8,320 nt of DNA. It comes from a virus (Duplodnaviria > Heunggongvirae > Uroviricota > Caudoviricetes). Every line of letters starts with the position of its first letter. The stretch's first letter is position 1. The translations under genes and the position numbers were made by a program. Of this stretch, positions 1 to 8,320 are shown one piece after another. The notes below the pieces were generated by a model. The model was not told the DNA's origin and ran no database searches. It was given only the letters and a program-made list of their open reading frames with translations. The stretch is taken from IMG/VR virus record IMGVR_UViG_2563366990_000016, positions 1 through 8,320 of that record. One strand, given 5' to 3'.

Positions 1-1305
1 TATCCCAGGGACGGCATTCAGCAATATTTTTATGCCATCGCTGAAATTGATGAAGACGGCAACGTGACTGACCTGCGCCCCAGAGGAACCCCGGAAGAGC
101 GCCGCAGTCTGGACGCCCTGAAAAAACACGAGAAATCACGCAACCACCCGGACGCAACGCTGAAAGAAAAGGGCTTCACACAGTTAAGCAGCGCCACCAC
201 CAGTACATCAGAGACACAGGCAGCCACGCCAAAGGCTATAAAGATCGCCATGGACAACGCCGATGGCCGGCTTGCGAAAAACCGCAATGGTGAGGACATC
301 CCCAACAAAGAGCTGTTCCTGATCAACGTGGGCGCACCACGCGTTTATGCAAAAGACGGGTACGTGGGTGAAGCAGGGCAACGCTGGACAACAGAACAAT
401 TCGTGGAATGGCTGAATGAGCGTGGCGCCTTCAGACCAGGACTCTGGATATTCAAAGCCAATATTTCACTTTCCCGGCACAGCGTGCTCACTGATACGGG
501 CTATGGTGATATCTGCCTTGGAGGCTGCCTTATCGAAGTATCAGGCGACATCAACGGGGGGATCATCAGGATCACAACAGGTCTCGAAAGCCCAAACCCT
601 GCCGACATGTACCTCCGCACACAGTTCACCGGGGTTGTTTTAAATAAAGGGAAAAGCACCATCTGGTACCGCACTTACACGGACAAAAACAAACCCACAC
701 CACAGGACATCGGCGCACTGCCTGCAAGTGAGTTGTTACCCGCAGGCGTTCCCCTGCCGTGGCCGTCAGACACCCCGCCTGCCGGTTACGCCATCATGGT
801 GGGGCAGACATTCGATAAAGCACGATATCCCCTGCTGGCAAAAGCCTATCCGGATGGTCGTATCCCGGATATGCGTGGCTGGACAATCAAGGGAAAACCT
901 GCCAGCGGTCGTGCGGTATTGTCACAGGAACAGGACGGCATCAAATCCCACACCCACGGGGGGAGTGTCTCAAATACTGACCTTGGCACGAAAACGACCT
1001 CATCATTTGACTACGGAACCAAAACAACCTCTACAAACGGACAACATGAACACAGCGTCCCCCTGAGAAGACAAGATGGCGGAGGCATAAACTTTGACTG
1101 GCTGGATGGTTCATCGTCCGGTTCTCATATTGGTAATGGATACGTTCCTGCCGCAGGTGACCACCAACATACCGTACCCATTGGCGCACACACCCACACG
1201 CTCGCACTGGGTTCACATGGTCACGGCCTGACCATTAACCCCACCGGTAATGCCGAAAACACCGTTAAAAATATTGCATTTAACTACATCGTGAGGCTTG
1301 CATAA
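1..1305 (+). CDS. Phage side tail fibre protein, C-terminal ~435 aa; 5' end lies upstream of the window
   Basis: Frame 1 is open from nt 1 (no stop before the annotated GTG at 64). Translation carries the conserved tail-fibre motif block [52 protein letters not shown] (nt ~745-895), then five His-x-His motifs (HTH, HEH, HQH, HTHTL, HGH; nt ~950-1230) and a C-terminus [11 protein letters not shown], as recalled for P2 gpH / Mu S / lambda Stf-type fibres. Stop TAA at 1303-1305 overlaps the next start. Confidence 0.85.
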
Positions 1306-1901
1306 TGACCTTTAAAATGAGCGAACACCCACAGACAATTAAAATCTACAACCTGTCAGCCGGAACAAATGAATTTATCGGCGAAGGCGATGCCTGGATC
1401 CCTCCGCATACCGGACTGCCTGCGCACTCAACGGACATTGCCCCGCCTGACATTCCTGAAGGACACGTGGCTATCTTTGATGAGGATGAAAACACCTGGC
1501 AGCTCATGGAAGATCACCGGGGTAAAACCGTCTGGCGTCTGGAGTCGGGAAGCGCCTTACTGATTACTGAGCCGGGCCCGTTACCGGAAAACGTGACCAT
1601 AATAAAACCGGACGGGGAGTTCTGCCGCTGGGACGGGTCATCATGGGCTAAGGATGAAGCGGCAGAACAGGCTTACCGGGTGAGCGAGGCGGAGAATAAA
1701 AAACGGGAATTAATACAGGAAGCAACAAATACAATAAACATCCTTCAGGATGCCGTGGATTTAAATATGGCGACCGACGATGAAAGCGCCCTGCTTCCCC
1801 TGTGGAAAAAATACCGGGTATTACTGAGCCGGACAGACACGGGCAACGCGCCGGATATTGTCTGGCCTGAATCCCCTTCGCCGGATCATCACGCAGGCTG
1901 A
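1305..1901 (+). CDS. tfa: Phage tail fibre assembly protein (Tfa / gpG-like chaperone), 198 aa
   Basis: N-terminus [51 protein letters not shown] and the later [26 protein letters not shown] closely resemble Tfa proteins of E. coli prophages as I recall them. ATG overlaps the fibre stop by 1 nt (taATGa), the usual fibre/chaperone coupling. Confidence 0.85.
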
Positions 1902-1912
1902 CCGGAGGCACC

Positions 1913-2638
1913 ATGACGTGGACAAGAAAAACAATCAGCGTCAGCGCTGACATGCCCCCGCTGAGCTGTTCCGTCATCCCCGTCACACCGTGGACTTACG
2001 GGCTGGGACGATATGAAGAATCGGGGGTATATTTAAGCCCTCCGAACGCCATAAACTGGCTGGCCGGGAAAATGGCCGGAAGCCGTGCATCCGGCGACGT
2101 GACCATTATCATGATTGCCGAAAACACCCACGATCTTTTTATACAGTCAATGGCGGCACTGACCGCCGTTCTGCCCGTGCCGGTATTCACGCAGGCACAG
2201 CGCATGGCACAGGCTGCCGCCAGTCTGAGCACTGACAAAATGCAAATCCCGATCACCACCGACACCCTGCCCGCACCTGTGCATCTTTCCGTTGCCACAA
2301 TGCGCAGCGCAGTCAGTGCCGCCCGTGCAGCACAGGCCAGGCAGCTGGCAGCACAACGCCCGGATGCCGCAGGGCTTCGCCGCCAGATAAGCCGCTTTAT
2401 CAGCAGACGGGCTGGCGCACTTGCCGGACTGGAAGAGGGGATCAGAACACTGGCAGAACAGAAGGCGCAGGCCTGGGTATTTCAGTACCGGGGGTATCAC
2501 CGCGCCGCAGCGGCGGCCATGGTGAAGGATATCCCGGCACCGACCGCCGTACATACCGTTGCCGCACTCCTGGCGGCAGACTCATTAACTGAACTGGGGA
2601 AAATGATCCATGAGCCAGACCGCACTGCTCGCCCTTGA
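1913..2638 (+). CDS. Hypothetical protein (241 aa, Ala-rich), co-transcribed with the tail fibre genes; function unknown
   Basis: ATG at 1913 preceded by GGAGG (1904-1908) and only 11 nt after the tfa stop. Same strand as flanking genes. The antisense ORFs across this span are Cys/Arg-rich and look spurious. No motif I can assign. Confidence 0.5.
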   Translation: MTWTRKTISVSADMPPLSCSVIPVTPWTYGLGRYEESGVYLSPPNAINWLAGKMAGSRASGDVTIIMIAENTHDLFIQSMAALTAVLPVPVFTQAQRMAQAAASLSTDKMQIPITTDTLPAPVHLSVATMRSAVSAARAAQARQLAAQRPDAAGLRRQISRFISRRAGALAGLEEGIRTLAEQKAQAWVFQYRGYHRAAAAAMVKDIPAPTAVHTVAALLAADSLTELGKMIHEPDRTARP

Positions 2639-3152
2639 TGGTGAGGGTATTTTCATGCAGAACATGGTGATTTCGCCCTCGATGCAGTTCCAGGAAAAGG
2701 ACCAGTCCGGCCAGACATCGAGCACCGCGAACGCCGAGCAGGGCATCAAGGCCAAAGAGCTTCGCGTAACCGGGATGATCACCTTTGACAATGAGCGGGC
2801 CCTTCAGCGCATTTTCCAGCTGGCCTCTGCCACCACCGGGGACGGTGCCCTGAAAGTTTACCGTATCGCAAACGCCACCGCTGCCGCCATTAACTTTCGT
2901 GAAGGGACATTTTCCGGGCAGATAGACGCACAGCAGCAGACCGACCGCCTCGCCTGGCAGGTCAGCTTCACATTACGCGAAAGACGAAGCGTACCGGAAA
3001 AACGCCAGGCACGCGCCACCCCCGCCAGCAGCCGTAAACAGACGCCGCAGACGCCCGGCGCAAAAGGCGGGACCGTGGCCGACGAAACACCGGAGAAAAT
3101 GACCTGGTTCGAAGAAAAGGTCCTCAAACCCGTCAATGATGCGCTGGAGTAA
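2610..3152 (+). CDS. Hypothetical protein (180 aa): ~120-aa N-terminal domain plus a charged, Pro/Gln/Lys/Arg-rich C-terminal tail; function unknown
   Basis: ATG at 2610 lies inside the 3' end of the previous ORF (29-nt overlap, different frame) with a purine-rich stretch GGGGAAAA upstream. Stop TAA at 3150-3152 is 2 nt before the next ATG, consistent with translational coupling. Confidence 0.5.
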   Translation: MSQTALLALDGEGIFMQNMVISPSMQFQEKDQSGQTSSTANAEQGIKAKELRVTGMITFDNERALQRIFQLASATTGDGALKVYRIANATAAAINFREGTFSGQIDAQQQTDRLAWQVSFTLRERRSVPEKRQARATPASSRKQTPQTPGAKGGTVADETPEKMTWFEEKVLKPVNDALE

Positions 3153-3154
3153 CC

Positions 3155-4828
3155 ATGAACCCCACTAAACGTCTGTTACTGGGTAACGACACCATTCAGC
3201 TGGTCAGTTGTTCCGTCATGCTTGAGCTGAACGCGTGCGGACGCGGATTTATCACAGCCAGAACAGAGCAGAACTACACCGGGCGCCCCGTTCGTCTCGA
3301 TATCGGATACGGAAACGACCTGGTGCGCTGGTTTACCGGATACGTTGAACGCAGCCAGCCCGCTGAAAACGGCTCGGTGCGGCTTCTGATTCGTGAAATG
3401 GCGGGGATCCTTGATCACCCCTTCCCCTGTTCATTTCAGCACCCGACAATGCGCACGGTCACACAGTGGCTGAGTGAGACCAGCGGGCTGGAAATCATCC
3501 TGCCGGACAACGCGGCTTACACTGACAGACCCGTTCCGCATTTCACACACAGCGGCACGGGCTACGAACTGCTGGCCAGTCTGGGGCGTATTTTCTCCGT
3601 ACCGGATTACATCTGGCATCCGTTACCGGACGGCGGCATTATGGCCGCTGCTGCCGCGCAGGGGATGTTTTCCGGTCGCCCCGTCACCATCCCGCACGAG
3701 TTCAGCCAGGCATCAACGGGCGGGCACAGTATGACCCTCCCGATGATTCAGACGCTGCGACCGGGTGTGGAGGTGAACGGTCAGCGCCTGACGATGGTCA
3801 TGCTGGAAGATGACAACATGACCATCACGTGGACACCACGCAATAAAGCCACCGGCGCCCCCCTCCAGAAGTCCCCTTTCCGTCGCCAGGCTGAAAAGGC
3901 CTTCCCTGAACTGGCATCAGGGCTTCACCTGCCCAAACTGGCACGTGTTGAGGCACCGACCGAAGCCGTCAGCGCGGGCAATATTGCCGACCCGTTCAGA
4001 CCCCGCTACGCGGTGAATCTCCAGCTGCTTGACGAGAACGGCAACCCGGCAGCAGATACGCCCGTCTATAACGCCGTTCCCCTCCCCGTTCCCATGGCGG
4101 GCAGTGAGTCCGGCATGTTCCAGTTCCCGCCACCCGGAACCCTGGTGGAAGTGGGATTTGTGGAAGGCCGGGCGGATAAGCCCTTCATCCGCCAGATAAT
4201 GGCAGAGGGCCACAATCTGCCCGACGTGAAGCCGGGCGAGCAGTTGCAGCAACAGCGCGACGGCGTATCGCAGCGCGTGACGGTCGCCGGAGACTGGGAG
4301 CGCCAGACAGACCAGCGGATACAGGAGACATCACGCGAGCGCGTGGTGAGCGCAGACGAGGAAAAGCGGAGCCTGACCAGCCGGGAGACCACCATACAGG
4401 CAACCGACACAACCACCGTCCTGGGCGTATCCACGCTTCAGGCTGGCGCGGTCACCCATATCACTGAAGAGAACTACAGCATCAGCACGGGCGGGCACAT
4501 GATGGTGGTTGCCGGTACCTGTGAGCGCGACGTGGAAGGCGACACCCAGGACACCGTGGGCGGCAGCCTTACCGAAAGGATTAAGGGCGTCCGTCACAGT
4601 ATTGCGCTGGCGCAGAAGCTGGTTGGCGATACGGTGAAGCTGGGAAACGAGGGCATTAATGTACTGACCATGCTGACGGACCTTGCCGATGTGGTGGAAG
4701 AGCTGGCAGATATTACGGCATCACATACCCACCCCAAAACGGGCACGTCTCCGCAGGCCGCACAGTTCAGCCAGGTCGCTCAGGAGTGCCGCCAGCTTAA
4801 AAATAAATATTCACCAATAATCGAGTAA
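3155..4828 (+). CDS. Putative phage baseplate central spike / hub-like protein (557 aa) with gp5/gpV/VgrG-type OB-fold and His-x-His C-terminal tip
   Basis: Residues ~305-355 (nt ~4070-4220) read VPLPVPMAGSESGMFQFPPPGTLVEVGFVEGRADKPFIRQIMAEGHN, matching the recalled OB-fold signature of gp5/gpV/VgrG spike proteins (P..G..V.V.F..G..D.P.I....N). The C-terminal part has Gly/Val/Thr-rich segments (VLGVSTLQAGAVTHI, GGHMMVVAG, VGGSLTERIKGV, VGDTVKLGNEG) and ends ITASHTHPKTGTSP. The N-terminal ~280 aa are unassigned. No Walker A or nuclease motif seen. Confidence 0.55.
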   Translation: MNPTKRLLLGNDTIQLVSCSVMLELNACGRGFITARTEQNYTGRPVRLDIGYGNDLVRWFTGYVERSQPAENGSVRLLIREMAGILDHPFPCSFQHPTMRTVTQWLSETSGLEIILPDNAAYTDRPVPHFTHSGTGYELLASLGRIFSVPDYIWHPLPDGGIMAAAAAQGMFSGRPVTIPHEFSQASTGGHSMTLPMIQTLRPGVEVNGQRLTMVMLEDDNMTITWTPRNKATGAPLQKSPFRRQAEKAFPELASGLHLPKLARVEAPTEAVSAGNIADPFRPRYAVNLQLLDENGNPAADTPVYNAVPLPVPMAGSESGMFQFPPPGTLVEVGFVEGRADKPFIRQIMAEGHNLPDVKPGEQLQQQRDGVSQRVTVAGDWERQTDQRIQETSRERVVSADEEKRSLTSRETTIQATDTTTVLGVSTLQAGAVTHITEENYSISTGGHMMVVAGTCERDVEGDTQDTVGGSLTERIKGVRHSIALAQKLVGDTVKLGNEGINVLTMLTDLADVVEELADITASHTHPKTGTSPQAAQFSQVAQECRQLKNKYSPIIE

Positions 4829-4842
4829 TTATTCACTTTAAC

Positions 4843-4867
4843 AGGCCGCGCAATGTGGCCTTTTTTA
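4843..4867 (+). terminator. Weak rho-independent terminator candidate after the tail operon
   Basis: AGGCC-gcgcaatgt-GGCCT short stem followed by TTTTTTATT (4861-4869), 15 nt after the stop at 4828. The stem is only 4-5 bp, so this is marginal. Confidence 0.35.
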
Positions 4868-4949
4868 TTCCCCCGACAATAAAAAATATTCATCACCGGA
4901 CATCACCCGCCACGAAAAAACCGTCCGCAGCAGAAAAAAAGATGGACGA

Positions 4950-5530
4950 AACGCCCCACGTAATCCCCACGTAAAACGTCGCGTAACGCCACGTAACGAA
5001 GAAATAATCCCGCCAGCCCGATTCGATCCCCTGACATCAGAAAACGATTTCTGCGCCCCAAAATCGCCGCAAATGGCCGGAAATTTTCGGGGGCGACGTA
5101 ACGCGTAAAGTGACGTAATCGGCGCTACCCCGCACACGCCTCCGGTATTTGTGTACGATAAATTTTGCAAATCGAAAGGGGTGCAAAACACCCCTCCAGG
5201 GCGCGCCATTACTGAGGTTTTCCCTTCTGAATGGTTTTGCACTTTGTGCAAGGTTTTGCAAAAGTGTGCAAAAACTCCGGCTTTCTGAGGATCCCGAAAA
5301 ATTTTAATGCACTGAATAACAAGAGATTTTTAAAATTACGTCACGATCGAAGATCTGAAAAAGGATCCGGTGACGAAAACGGAAAAATCAGGAAAACCAG
5401 AACTGGCGCGGCCTGGCGGGGAGTGGCAGCAAAAATCACTTTTGCACACTTTTGCACAACTGCTCCGAAAAAGGATGGCGAAGGGGAAGGAAAACAGCCG
5501 GATCATCCGTTGCACGTAACGGACGTAAAA
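4950..5530. repeat. Repeat-dense non-coding region: array of (C/G)ACGTAA heptamers, TTTTGCA(C/A) palindromes and phased A-tracts
   Basis: (C/G)ACGTAA at 4957, 4968, 4980, 4990 (spacing 10-12 bp), 5095, 5102, 5112, 5338 (inverted), 5513, 5522. TTTTGCA / TGCAAAA at 5163, 5182, 5235, 5247, 5254 (perfect palindrome TTTTGCAAAA 5254-5263), 5268, and a tandem CTTTTGCACA x2 at 5439-5458. Hairpin AGGGGTG-caaaa-CACCCCT at 5176-5195. A5-7 tracts roughly every 10-11 bp at 5372-5400. No convincing ORF. Confidence 0.5.
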
Positions 5531-5538
5531 GGTAAATT
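5510..5538 (+). promoter_or_regulatory. Putative sigma70 promoter for hok-like unit 1
   Basis: TTGCAC (5510-5515), 17-nt spacer, TAAATT (5533-5538), placed just 5' of where the duplicated unit begins (~5540). Pattern match only. Confidence 0.4.
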
Positions 5539-5690
5539 ACGCGCGGGTGCCTTTCGGCTGACGGCTGGAAGGAATACCTGAAGGCCGGATGTGAAAAGGC
5601 CCCGAGTCAACTAACGTTAACCCGAGGCCCTGACACTTCCTACCTGACAAGTGGAAGGTTAGCGCCTCCCTGTAAAAGGAGTCAAGCGCT

Positions 5691-5831
5691 ATGCCGCAAA
5701 AAACGATCATAGTGAGCATTTTATGCATAACTATTTTGATGATTGTCTGGATGATACACAAGTCACCGTGTGAGTTCAGGCTTAACATCATGTGGTCACA
5801 ATTTGCGGCGTTCTTGCAGTGTAAACAGTAA
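5691..5831 (+). CDS. hok: Hok/Gef-family type I toxin, HokA/PndA-like small membrane peptide (46 aa), copy 1
   Basis: Not in the ORF track (too short). AAGGAG at 5677-5682 sits 8 nt before ATG 5691. Translation MPQKTIIVSILCITILMIVWMIHKSPCEFRLNIMWSQFAAFLQCKQ has the Hok architecture: N-terminal MPQK, one hydrophobic helix, then K-S-x-C-E and AAFL-x-CK, resembling HokA/PndA as recalled. A ~145-nt leader precedes it. Confidence 0.75.
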   Translation: MPQKTIIVSILCITILMIVWMIHKSPCEFRLNIMWSQFAAFLQCKQ

Positions 5832-5921
5832 GAAACCGCAGCGGGGGTGAAAGCCCCCGCTATCCGGTTGCCGGGTTCGGTCGATATGGCACCCCTTTCT
5901 CCATTGGATTACAGACGTATT

Positions 5922-5947
5922 TGCCCGCAATATGCGGGCGTTTTTTT
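5922..5947 (+). terminator. Rho-independent terminator of hok-like unit 1
   Basis: GCCCGCA-ata-TGCGGGC stem-loop (5923-5939) followed by GTTTTTTT (5940-5947). Confidence 0.65.
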
Positions 5948-5993: not shown

Positions 5994-6148
5994 ACACGCG
6001 GGTGCCTTTCGGCTGATGGCTGGAAGGATTACCTGAAGGCCGGATGTGGAAAGGCCCCGGAGTCAACTTTAATGTTAACCCGAGGCCCTGACCATCTACC
6101 CTAAGCAAGTGGAAGGTTAGCGCCTCCCTGTAAAAGGAGTCAAGCGCT

Positions 6149-6289
6149 ATGCCGCAAAAAACGATCATCGTGAGCATTTTATGCTTAACCATGTTGTTGA
6201 CTGTCTGGATGATACACCGTTCTCCGTGTGAGTTCAGACTTAACATCATGTGGTCAGAATTTGCGGCGTTCTTGCAGTGTAAACCGTAA
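6149..6289 (+). CDS. hok: Hok/Gef-family type I toxin, HokA/PndA-like (46 aa), copy 2
   Basis: AAGGAG then ATG at 6149. Translation MPQKTIIVSILCLTMLLTVWMIHRSPCEFRLNIMWSEFAAFLQCKP, a handful of substitutions from copy 1. Not in the ORF track. Confidence 0.75.
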   Translation: MPQKTIIVSILCLTMLLTVWMIHRSPCEFRLNIMWSEFAAFLQCKP

Positions 6290-6486
6290 GAAACCGCAGC
6301 GGGGGTGAAAGCCCCCGCTATCCGGTTGCCAAAGGTTCGGTCGAAAGTCGCACCCTCACACAAAAGGCACAAAGAAAAATAAATATCCTCCGGCATAGCC
6401 GGAGGTTTTTCAAATGCGCCTATAAGGCTCTCTTACCAGCCGCGCCCTAACAGGCGCACACGATCTGACATTTGCATCCAACTTCG

Positions 6487-6945
6487 TTACTTACGGCCCG
6501 TAAACGGGCTGCCCGGATAGGGAATCGATAACTGCTCTCCCATTTTATCCTCTTCAAGCTGGTGCTTTATGTAATCCTGTATCTTCGCCGTGTTCTTACC
6601 CACCGTATCGACGTAGTACCCTCTGCACCAGAACTCTCTGTTCCTGTATTTGAATTTCAAATCACCAAACTGCTCGTAAAGCATCAGACTGCTTTTCCCT
6701 TTCAGATATCCCATAAAGCCGGATACACTCATTTTGGGCGGGATCTCCACAAGCATATGGATATGATCTGCACAGCATTCAGCTTCAAGAATCCGTACGC
6801 TTTTCCACTCACACAGCTTTCTCAAAATACTGCCTATTGCTCTACGCTTCTCTCTGTAGAACACTTGTCTTCGGTATTTTGGCGCAAAAACTATGTGATA
6901 TTTACAGTTCCATCGGGTGTGCGCTAAGCTCTTTTCGTTCCCCAT
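6487..6945 (-). CDS. tnpA: IS200 transposase TnpA (Y1 HUH transposase), 152 aa
   Basis: Translation from the internal Met (MGNEKSLAHTRWNCKYHIVFAPKYRRQ...HIHMLVEIPPK...GYYVDTVGKNTAKIQDYIKHQLEEDK) carries the HUH motif (HIH) and the catalytic tyrosine region, and matches IS200 TnpA as I recall it. The annotated ORF start at 6996 is an upstream extension. The ATG codon spans 6943-6945 and is preceded by GGGGG. Confidence 0.9.
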   Translation of the reverse strand: MGNEKSLAHTRWNCKYHIVFAPKYRRQVFYREKRRAIGSILRKLCEWKSVRILEAECCADHIHMLVEIPPKMSVSGFMGYLKGKSSLMLYEQFGDLKFKYRNREFWCRGYYVDTVGKNTAKIQDYIKHQLEEDKMGEQLSIPYPGSPFTGRK

Positions 6946-6950
6946 TGGGA

Positions 6951-7020
6951 CCCCCTTTTGATTTCTTGTTTGACACTTGCAGTTGCCAGACCGCAAGGTG
7001 TTTTAACAAATCAAAAGGGG
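6951..7020 (-). promoter_or_regulatory. IS200 5' leader stem-loop that sequesters the tnpA ribosome-binding site
   Basis: CCCCCTTTTGATTT (6951-6964) is complementary to AAATCAAAAGGGG (7008-7020). The arm next to the start codon contains the GGGGG Shine-Dalgarno on the minus strand. This fits the known translational repression structure of IS200. Confidence 0.5.
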
Positions 7021-7094
7021 TTTTAATAACTGGCTCAAAGCTGAAAGCTTTCCGGAACCCCCAGCCTAGCTGGGGGTTTTCTGTGCACAACAAA

Positions 7095-7123
7095 GCCCGC
7101 AGCGTAAAAACTGCGGGCTTTTT
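7095..7123 (+). terminator. Rho-independent terminator-like hairpin just outside the IS200 left end; possibly the displaced terminator of hok-like unit 2
   Basis: GCCCGCAG-cgtaaaaa-CTGCGGGC followed by TTTTT (7119-7123). The stem sequence GCCCGCA is the same as in the unit-1 terminator at 5923-5939. Confidence 0.5.
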
Positions 7124-7160
7124 CTATATCTCGAAAATGTGGTCATTGCGTGGACAACAA

Positions 7161-7184
7161 TTGATATAAATCCTTTTATATCAA
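7161..7184. promoter_or_regulatory. Perfect 10-bp inverted repeat in the flk upstream region
   Basis: TTGATATAAA-tcct-TTTATATCAA, ~140 bp upstream of the flk ATG in an AT-rich stretch. Function unknown. Confidence 0.3.
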
Positions 7185-7324
7185 AATGTTAAATAATTTT
7201 CATTTTTCATCAACAAGGATTTTCACGTTTGTGTTACCTGTATGAGACGAGAGTTAACCGGACAAGTGTGCCATAATCTCGCGGCCAGGCATACTTGCGA
7301 AGATTTCAGGTATAAGGATACGTA

Positions 7325-8320
7325 ATGATACAACCTATTTCCGGCCCTCCTCCTGGGCAACCACCAGGTCAGGGAGATAACCTGCCGTCTGGCGCGGGCA
7401 ATCAGCCTTTATCCAGTCAGCAACGTACTTCGCTGGAAAGCTTAATGACGAAAGTGACCTCACTGACGCAACAGCAAAGAGCAGAACTGTGGGCGGGTAT
7501 CAGGCACGATATTGGTCTGTCGGGAGATTCACCGCTGCTTTCGCGTCACTTCCCTGCCGCTGAGCACAATCTGGCGCAACGTCTGCTGGCCGCGCAAAAA
7601 AGCCATTCTGCCCGCCAGCTTTTAGCGCAATTAGGGGAGTATTTACGTCTGGGGAATAATCGTCAGGCGGTCACGGATTATATCCGTCATAACTTTGGTC
7701 AGACGCCGCTGAATCAGCTCTCACCGGAGCAATTAAAAACCATTCTAACCCTGTTGCAGGAAGGGAAGATGGTTATTCCGCAACCGCAGCAGCGCGAGGC
7801 GACCGACCGTCCGTTATTACCGGCGGAGCACAATGCGCTCAAACAGCTGGTGACCAAACTTGCGGCGGCAACGGGAGAACCCAGCAAACAGATCTGGCAA
7901 TCGATGCTGGAACTTTCCGGGGTGAAAGATGGCGAGTTAATTCCAGCGAAACTGTTTAACCATCTGGTGACCTGGCTGCAGGCGCGTCAGACGCTAAGCC
8001 AGCAAAATACGCCGACGCTTGAATCACTACAGATGGCGCTGAAACAACCTTTAGATGCCAGTGAACTGGCGGCGTTATCGGCATATATCCAGCAAAAATA
8101 TGGCCTTTCTGCGCAATCATCGCTTTCTTCTGCCCAGGCCGAGGATATTCTTAATCAGCTTTATCAACGGCGGGTTAAAGGGATTGATCCGCGTGATATG
8201 CAACCGCTGCTTAATCCTTTTCCACCGATGATGGACACGTTGCAAAATATGGCAACGCGTCCCGCGCTGTGGATACTGTTAGTCGCGATTATCCTGATGC
8301 TGGTCTGGCTGGTTCGTTAA
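7325..8320 (+). CDS. flk: Flagellar regulator Flk-like protein (331 aa), C-terminally membrane-anchored
   Basis: AAGGA at 7311-7315 precedes ATG 7325; stop TAA is the last codon of the window. Pro/Gln-rich N-terminus MIQPISGPPPGQPPGQ and a single C-terminal hydrophobic helix (ALWILLVAIILMLVWLV) match what I recall of enterobacterial Flk. The identification is from memory and not verified. Confidence 0.65.
   Translation: MIQPISGPPPGQPPGQGDNLPSGAGNQPLSSQQRTSLESLMTKVTSLTQQQRAELWAGIRHDIGLSGDSPLLSRHFPAAEHNLAQRLLAAQKSHSARQLLAQLGEYLRLGNNRQAVTDYIRHNFGQTPLNQLSPEQLKTILTLLQEGKMVIPQPQQREATDRPLLPAEHNALKQLVTKLAAATGEPSKQIWQSMLELSGVKDGELIPAKLFNHLVTWLQARQTLSQQNTPTLESLQMALKQPLDASELAALSAYIQQKYGLSAQSSLSSAQAEDILNQLYQRRVKGIDPRDMQPLLNPFPPMMDTLQNMATRPALWILLVAIILMLVWLVR

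Follow-up and report, generated by a model that had tools for sequence, protein, structure and literature searches.

In the window, that is, the whole stretch of 8,320 nucleotides that was analysed, a P2/HP1-like prophage that is integrated upstream of flk in Escherichia coli has its right end, and this end carries two tandem hok-family type I toxin units. Genes for phage tail-fibre, tail-fibre-assembly and baseplate-type proteins extend to position 4828; a non-coding stretch, the two hok units, an IS200 copy on the minus strand, a hairpin and flk follow in this order. Every complete E. coli genome contains a match to the flk region, with identities that reach at least 99%; the host is therefore E. 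coli itself or one of its very close relatives. Homology to the pdxB-flk spacer of K-12 begins at about 7210; this spacer is 98 bp long and has no prophage, hok or hairpin. The same spot is occupied in other strains by P2-like prophages or by a type VI secretion-associated islet. The hok-IS200-flk arrangement and its junction were absent from the 5,426 complete RefSeq E. coli genomes searched, and the IS200 insertion at hok-2 is strain-specific. Tandem hok islets and the enrichment of hok genes in prophages have already been described in the literature.

The 557-aa baseplate-region protein has exact matches only in prophage copies at the tamB/ytfP site, which do not carry IS200; exact matches to the Flk protein are very common and mostly come from empty sites. 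The features of the phage and hok regions, and flk itself, are the following:

64-4828: phage tail-fibre, tail-fibre-assembly and baseplate-type proteins (Pfam Phage_fiber_2, Collar, Caudo_TAP, HP1_ORF34)
5545-5947, plus strand: predicted transcript of hok unit 1 (Pfam HOK_GEF, Rfam, RNAfold, terminator scan)
5691-5831, plus strand: hok-1 ORF, 46 aa, intact, stop codon at 5829-5831 (HOK_GEF 26.0 bits, cut-off 22)
5839-5862, plus strand: post-stop stem-loop of unit 1
5877-5894, plus strand: fold-back (fbi-like) element of unit 1 (RNAfold pairs nt 1-17 with nt 333-350)
5922-5940, T-run to 5947, plus strand: terminator-like hairpin of unit 1 (terminator scan)
6000-6379, plus strand: body of the hok unit 2 transcript up to the IS200 junction (Pfam, Rfam, RNAfold)
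6114-6143, minus strand: candidate Sok antisense promoter, TTGACT-18 nt-TAACCT (relaxed consensus scan only)
6133-6138, plus strand: Shine-Dalgarno sequence of unit 2, AAGGAG
6149-6289, plus strand: hok-2 ORF, 46 aa, intact (HOK_GEF 27.8 bits, cut-off 22)
6297-6320, plus strand: post-stop GC stem-loop of unit 2, intact
6337-6355, plus strand: fold-back (fbi-like) element of unit 2 (RNAfold pairs nt 1-17 with nt 338-356)
7325-8320: flk, to the right of the hairpin

The two hok units repeat directly at a period of 455-458 bp and share 93-94% identity. In unit 1, where the earlier note had counted about 115 nt from the stop codon to a terminator, the T-run ends about 116 nt after the stop codon. 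The start of hok-2 mRNA was placed at position 6000 by homology with the Rfam hok-leader model. The unit 2 fold-back was predicted by RNAfold in both the minimum free energy and the centroid structures, with a fold z-score of -8.4, and a 5′/3′ duplex of -27 to -33 kcal/mol was predicted in 11 of 11 related units, which are too alike for covariation. In hok mRNAs, the tac/fbi closure keeps the full-length molecule untranslatable and 3′ processing activates it (PMC9841398); the long-range fold-back predicted for unit 2 would be the equivalent of this closure. The stem-loop that follows the hok-2 stop codon corresponds, by analogy, to the hok stem-loop described in the literature, which guards the processed, active mRNA from exonucleases. 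An A-rich spacer lies between the fold-back element and the IS200 junction.

The antisense side of the two units is less clearly defined. The Rfam sok model scored 48.7 bits on unit 2 (6000-6160) and 35.8 bits on unit 1 (5545-5702), against a gathering score of 59. The candidate Sok promoter listed above is opposite the unit 2 leader, and a weak candidate is kept also in unit 1 (5656-5685); a stricter promoter scan detected no Sok promoter. A search for a mok-like gene found no plus-strand ORF of at least 20 aa overlapping the hok start, and an in-frame stop codon is present 18 nt upstream of the hok ATG. Thus, since Sok and its promoter are only tentative and a mok-like ORF was not found, the regulation of these units may differ in detail from that of R1 hok/sok. 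Membership in the Hok/Gef family stands.

The region downstream of hok-2 is occupied by the following features:

6378-7088 or equally 6380-7090, minus strand: IS200 (IS200C type), 711 bp (empty sites in the three IS200-free alleles L001, L088 and L089; four-copy comparison)
6387-6410, plus strand: subterminal hairpin of the IS200 right end, CCTCCGGCATAGCCGGAGG (6387-6405), then TTTTT (flagged as terminator-like on both strands)
6487-6945, minus strand: tnpA, intact, coding for a 152-aa Y1 (HUH) transposase (Pfam Y1_Tnp, E = 3.9e-38, profile positions 2-121 of 121)
6955-7078, minus strand: IS200 left-end RNA region, i.e. the tnpA 5′UTR, Rfam STnc490 (RF01405), also the art200 region (146.4 bits, E = 2.6e-31; gathering score 56)
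7056-7078, minus strand: IS200 left-end terminator hairpin (IS200 nt 12-34)
7092-7121, T-run to 7125, plus strand: native intrinsic terminator of hok-2, stem AAAGCCCGCAG / CTGCGGGCTTT, 8-nt loop (terminator scan, IS-free alleles)
7126-7209, no strand assigned: probable right end of the prophage, attR arm-like (similar sequence 3′ of the hairpin at the serS, cycA and prpB sites)

The sole gene of the IS200 copy is tnpA, whose product is identical at 152 of 152 residues to the TnpA of an E. coli IS200C (in L003) and has its HxH motif as HIH at residues 61-63. The hairpin at nt 12-34 of IS200 has been described as a terminator (PMC4513863). Other Rfam matches in the window (Thr_leader, trpB, ncr1015, Ysr202, Esr41) were far under their gathering scores and reflect terminator hairpins. 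The length of 711 bp is also the distance from GT to ATT in 13 of 16 full IS200 copies. An AA flanks both junctions, which leaves a boundary ambiguity of 2 nt, and the comparison with the three empty sites revealed no target-site duplication beyond these two nucleotides. IS200 breaks the hok-2 3′ region at 6379/6380 or at 6377/6378 and is located 90 nt 3′ of the hok-2 stop codon; the earlier note had correctly recognized this interruption, but it had put it at about 6386, and position 6387 is where the right-end hairpin of the element starts. DNA identity to annotated IS200C copies is 98-99%, and the block 6378-7090 is invariant across four independent copies, with essentially no differences between the copy in the window and the other three. 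As it is identical to other IS200C copies, the insertion looks recent, and this IS200C copy would apparently be a young one.

A hairpin starts 2-4 nt past the left end of IS200, where the earlier note had indicated a terminator just beyond the element, at 7095-7123; the boundaries found here, 7092-7121 with the T-run to 7125, confirm it with a small shift. Three IS200-free alleles of the same prophage end were identified, each at a different chromosomal site: one by serS in strain 04-00955 (L001), one by cycA in JNEC-KY177 (L088) and one by prpB in JNEC-KY171 (L089). Their Hok-2 proteins are identical to that of the window. All three run unbroken through ...GTCGAAAGTCGCACCCTCACAC.AAAG.CACAAAGAAAAA|CAAAGCCCG..GCGTAAAAACTGCGGGCTTTTT, and the uninterrupted junction across the insertion point reads ...CACAAAGAAAAA|CAAAGCCCGCAGCGTAAAAACTGCGGGCTTTTT; the window contains exactly the left part of this allele before IS200 and exactly the right part after it. 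The loop GCGTAAAAAC is common to the hairpins of the window and of the three alleles, and the hairpin by prpB is identical to that of the window. A lack of contiguity between the two IS200 flanks in IS200-free alleles had been named in the earlier note as the result that would overturn the claim of a displaced hok-2 terminator, and the claim survived this comparison. The alleles diverge only 3′ of the hairpin, where they still share an arm-like motif; therefore, the hairpin lies inside the mobile element and not at a chromosomal junction. Because the three IS200-free alleles read through to the same hairpin, the comparison of sequences identifies 7092-7125 as the native hok-2 terminator, now parted from hok-2 by IS200.

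The consequences for hok-2 depend on what lies on the two sides of the junction. Promoter, Shine-Dalgarno sequence, ORF, post-stop stem-loop and fold-back element are all upstream of it, the junction being 22-24 nt 3′ of the predicted fold-back element; no regulatory part of hok-2 would therefore be truncated. Transcription of hok-2 is predicted to enter IS200 for 7 nt and most likely to end at the right-end hairpin and T5, which are found at this distance inside the element. The resulting transcript would be of about 411 nt, compared with about 413 nt for the native one, and it would carry a new terminal hairpin. This hairpin has a short loop of 3 nt, compared with the 8 nt of the native one, and, at -15.5 kcal/mol, it is predicted to be less stable than the native hok-2 terminator (-19.6 kcal/mol) but more stable than that of hok-1 (-13.5 kcal/mol). 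The predicted fold of the mRNA was unchanged when the 3′ end was taken from the right end of IS200 in place of the native hairpin, as reconstructed. On the other side of the element, the displaced hok terminator would shield tnpA from flk-side transcription.

Taken as a whole, the data make it probable, in our judgement, that the inserted IS200C element had homed to a terminator-type target and that, for hok-2, the event amounted to a near-neutral exchange of terminators. The exchange is judged near-neutral because the regulatory parts are upstream, a replacement hairpin is available 7 nt inside the element and the transcript length is close to the native one. Little or no change in hok-2 control would follow, at most an altered rate of 3′ exonucleolytic processing. 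The exchange could still alter toxin activation, since how fast hok mRNAs are processed at the 3′ end depends on the structure found there.

The earlier note had proposed that the insertion may inactivate or deregulate this copy, with reference to the IS elements inserted near the hok loci of K-12. According to this explanation, hok-2 would be affected as hokC, hokE and hokA are by IS186 and IS150: loss of the native terminator would lead to read-through or unstable transcripts, or to altered 3′ processing, and Hok-2 would never be made or would be made inappropriately. The precedent itself was confirmed in the MG1655 annotation, where IS186A ends 19 bp past the hokC stop codon, IS186B starts 18 bp past the hokE stop codon and IS150 interrupts mokA/sokA at hokA. 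IS insertions at the chromosomal hok loci of K-12 were reportedly described by Pedersen and Gerdes in 1999. Also in favour of an effect, the terminal hairpin is altered, in both stability and loop size, and the 3′ end of hok mRNA governs translation through the tac/fbi pairing and a slow 3′ processing (PMC9841398). However, the K-12 IS186 insertions strip the entire 3′ UTR, whereas here both the stem-loop after the stop codon and the fold-back element lie 5′ of IS200, the mRNA body keeps its predicted fold and a terminator-like hairpin of intermediate stability is provided within the element. Inactivation or deregulation of hok-2 is thus possible, though unlikely, and less likely than a harmless exchange of terminators; the suggestion of the earlier note keeps this limited standing, since the regulatory parts are upstream and a substitute hairpin is supplied.

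The location of the insertion can be related to that of other IS200 copies. A survey was performed on one genome per species, using an internal 30-mer of the IS200 left end, and it yielded 78 loci with 78 unique left-end flanks; a flank was scored when a GC-rich hairpin with a perfect stem of at least 6 bp ended at most 12 nt from the IS. Such a hairpin was found in 70 of the 78 flanks, compared with 5.8% of random positions in the same loci, and the mean number of T in the last 8 nt was 6.4 in these flanks and 1.9 at random positions; visual inspection of the remaining 8 flanks revealed imperfect hairpins. The left end of about 90% of the 78 copies begins 0-8 nt past the hairpin, within the T-run. 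Among the full copies for which both flanks were available (n = 16), the hairpin was at the left end in 15 and at the right end in one, and the lone right-end case is explained by another IS200 in direct tandem, whose left end lies there. In the surveyed pattern tnpA points in the same direction as the terminated transcript. The IS200C copies of E. coli at sbcB/plaP, at leuD/sgrS (after the sgrS terminator) and near ycdU all have their left end directly 3′ of hairpins that differ from one another.

On the minus strand, the copy in the window conforms to this pattern, reading GCCCGCAG-TTTTTACG-CTGCGGGC-TTTG(TT)|GTGCACAG. Indeed, the hok-2 terminator is two-sided, with an A-tract upstream and a T-tract downstream, and its minus-strand reading is GCCCGCAG-loop-CTGCGGGC-TTTGTT. 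As the reading that was used makes the A-tract side the T-run, IS200 is found between the UTR and the hairpin and not beyond the terminator. The element would have landed at hok-2 by homing to hairpins of this type.

The general association between ISs and terminators is already in the literature: an enrichment of terminator-like sequences is found immediately 5′ of ISs, and the IS200/IS605 family shows it most strongly (ISME J 2026, PMC13548323; first in bioRxiv). A literature search found this general IS-family observation only, and no statement of a target preference specific to IS200 or IS1541. A preference for terminators could partly reflect the survival of harmless insertions. In its full form, this explanation attributes the association to selection, with insertion occurring at random and only the copies outside transcription units persisting, and the position at hok-2 would then be uninformative on mechanism. 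Any IS is expected to be under purifying selection against insertions within genes, and the ISME J 2026 paper reads upstream terminators as limiting transposase expression and so favouring persistence (PMC13548323). However, the precision at the left end is hard to obtain by selection alone; the hairpin invariably stands at the left end and in the orientation of tnpA, and almost never at the right end (1 of 16); and the IS200 at hok-2 is inside a transcription unit, in the gap between UTR and hairpin, a place not favoured by selection for sites outside genes. Moreover, insertion in the IS200/IS605 family is known to proceed via single-stranded DNA and to occur on the 3′ side of a short, specific target, which lies beside the left end (PMC2806898). 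An origin of the association by selection is therefore improbable in our estimate, and target choice is favoured over the survival of harmless insertions because of this nucleotide-level precision together with the left-end-adjacent targeting known in the IS family.

Two other origins were tried for the hairpin and rejected. A chromosomal or att core is ruled out by the K-12 empty site and by the alleles at other integration sites; a part of IS200, suggested by BLAST matches that run about 35 nt past the left end, does not agree with the flanks, which are differing, look-alike local terminators. The corresponding reading, i.e. that 7092-7125 is chromosome (flk/pdxB or att) or IS200 and that its resemblance to the unit 1 terminator is due to chance, is highly improbable and, by these comparisons, essentially refuted: it could draw on BLAST matches to other IS200C copies that span such a hairpin and at first resemble IS sequence, and on E. 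coli core matches that in some strains start inside or near the hairpin, but a hairpin with the same loop is directly 3′ of the hok-2 3′ UTR in IS-free alleles at three other sites and closes the hok units of two P2-like prophages at the flk site (L002 and L008), the hairpins beside other IS200 copies differ in sequence and are local terminators such as that of sgrS, and the absence of any such hairpin between pdxB and flk in K-12 indicates that it is not chromosomal. The GCCCGCA stem shared with unit 1, from which the earlier note had started, is indeed present, but by itself it does not go beyond chance, with five matches in the window compared with 2.3 expected and 16 of 200 shuffles reaching five.

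With the hairpin assigned to hok-2 by its alleles, the exchange of terminators can be taken one step further, although tentatively. Terminator-like hairpins are present at both ends of IS200, and the insertion would therefore replace or preserve termination for both neighbours. It may be, and we regard this extension as somewhat less likely than not, that a type I toxin mRNA, activated in dependence on its 3′ end, now terminates with a transposon hairpin and is still correctly controlled, as a natural exchange brought about by a terminator-homing IS200 with hairpins at both ends. If this were true, it would help to explain the tolerance of high IS200 copy numbers in spite of very rare transposition, and nature would have provided at this locus an experiment on the way in which the terminal hairpin determines the processing rate of hok mRNA.

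For annotation, the presence of IS200 is no evidence that hok-2 is dead, and the hairpin at 7092-7125 belongs to hok-2, not to flk or IS200. The finding that about 90% of 78 independent IS200 copies are at the foot of an intrinsic terminator, on their left-end side, bears on the choice of single-stranded hairpin targets by Y1 transposases and on the benignity of IS200. The insertion at hok-2 is an ordinary instance of IS200 landing at terminator hairpins, and current understanding is not overturned.

Compared with R1 hok/sok, the units have in common an mRNA of about 410 nt (predicted here) that encodes a small toxin of the Hok/Gef family, a strong predicted 5′-3′ fold-back resembling tac/fbi, a stem-loop rich in GC that directly follows the stop codon and a terminal terminator hairpin. 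An antisense promoter opposite the leader, for which there is a weak candidate, may be a further common feature. They differ in that a mok-like overlapping ORF was not found and hok has its own Shine-Dalgarno sequence, in the Rfam sok score, which is under the gathering threshold, and in their location in a prophage, where they are tandemly duplicated. As at the K-12 hok loci, the IS is in the non-coding part and the hok ORF is intact. However, the K-12 IS186 insertions cause the loss of the whole 3′ UTR, including the stem-loop and the fold-back element, and IS150 cuts mokA/sokA, whereas IS200 here removes only the terminal hairpin and brings a substitute; the K-12 analogy holds for the presence of an IS beside a hok gene, not for its consequence.

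The element itself is a typical IS200, of about 710 bp, with a single 152-aa Y1/HUH transposase identical to IS200C TnpA, a left-end terminator hairpin, a structured 5′UTR and a right-end subterminal hairpin, and with neither terminal inverted repeats nor a target duplication. Its left end abuts a hairpin and a T-run, an arrangement shared by about 90% of the other copies surveyed; unlike most IS200 sites, the T-run of the target is interrupted (TTTGTT) and weaker, and there is no structural difference otherwise. Group IIC introns are other mobile elements that target terminators. Like such elements, IS200 inserts right after the hairpin of an intrinsic terminator and co-oriented with it, a position that silences read-in and spares genes; unlike the group IIC introns, which are retroelements, it is a DNA transposon that moves via single-stranded DNA.

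The flanks of IS200 were surveyed at 78 loci carrying its left end, with one genome scanned per species (L010-L087), and at three Escherichia coli IS200C copies (L003-L005). A GC-rich hairpin followed by a T-run directly precedes the left end in 70 of the 78 independent copies, compared with 5.8% of random positions, while the right-end flank is without such hairpins (1/16 only). One of the E. coli copies (L004) lies directly behind the sgrS terminator. Two copies were also found in tandem, in a Salmonella locus:

L030, 5100-5850: two IS200 copies, direct head-to-tail tandem, Salmonella enterica subsp. diarizonae

At the junction, the right end of one copy, ending in GGATATTTATT, is followed immediately by the left end of the other, GTCTATGG; here the right-end hairpin of one IS200 appears to be the target used by the next copy.

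The enterobacterial-type left end also occurs on contigs from genomes classified as Firmicutes or Oxalobacter:

L015, L021, L046, L079: IS200 left end, Vagococcus sp. WN89Y
L038, L041, L043, L077, L087: IS200 left end, Peptococcaceae MAG
L040: IS200 left end, Oxalobacter MAG

The enterobacterial look of the flanks in Vagococcus sp. WN89Y suggests that these contigs are contaminants or were misbinned. In the Peptococcaceae MAG, the tip of the left end is distinct, TTGTATGAAG, and in two of the copies no T-run follows the hairpin.

The right end of the prophage consists of the hok units, the terminator and then an arm roughly 85 bp long; the arm contains the motifs TGGnCA...TGGACA and AAATCCnTTTTAT.

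Window 7126-7209: probable right-end arm of the prophage
L001 (strain 04-00955, serS site), 4030-4100: the same arm
L088 (JNEC-KY177, cycA) and L089 (JNEC-KY171, prpB): equivalent arms

In differing E. coli strains this same right end occupies at least five chromosomal sites (flk, serS, cycA, prpB and tamB/ytfP), suggesting either that one P2-like integrase can use several secondary att sites or that several related integrases are involved.

Upstream of the hok units, and opposite the leader and Shine-Dalgarno region of each, the window contains the following elements:

4829-5540: long non-coding stretch between a baseplate-region gene and hok-1
5656-5685 and 6114-6143, minus strand: candidate Sok promoter, TTGACT-18-TAACCT

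The non-coding stretch is rich in ACGTAA/CACGTAA repeats (about 4958-5010, 5095-5125 and 5512-5530) and includes inverted repeats of the TTTTGCACA type (5243-5274 and 5437-5460); it may harbor binding sites or an origin-like region. In relatives, a hypothetical ORF of 96-111 aa is annotated in the equivalent region. The candidate Sok promoter is kept in both hok units, neither of which contains a mok-like ORF, and hok has a Shine-Dalgarno of its own, AAGGAG.

In E. coli K-12, IS186 lies 19 bp past the stop codon of hokC (L098) and 18 bp past that of hokE (L109), the place taken in the hok units of the window by a GC-rich post-stop stem-loop (GGGGG-N-CCCCC). GGGG-N6/7-CCCC is the preferred target of IS186; thus, two unlike types of IS may each be drawn, for a reason of its own, to structural features in the 3' UTR of hok.
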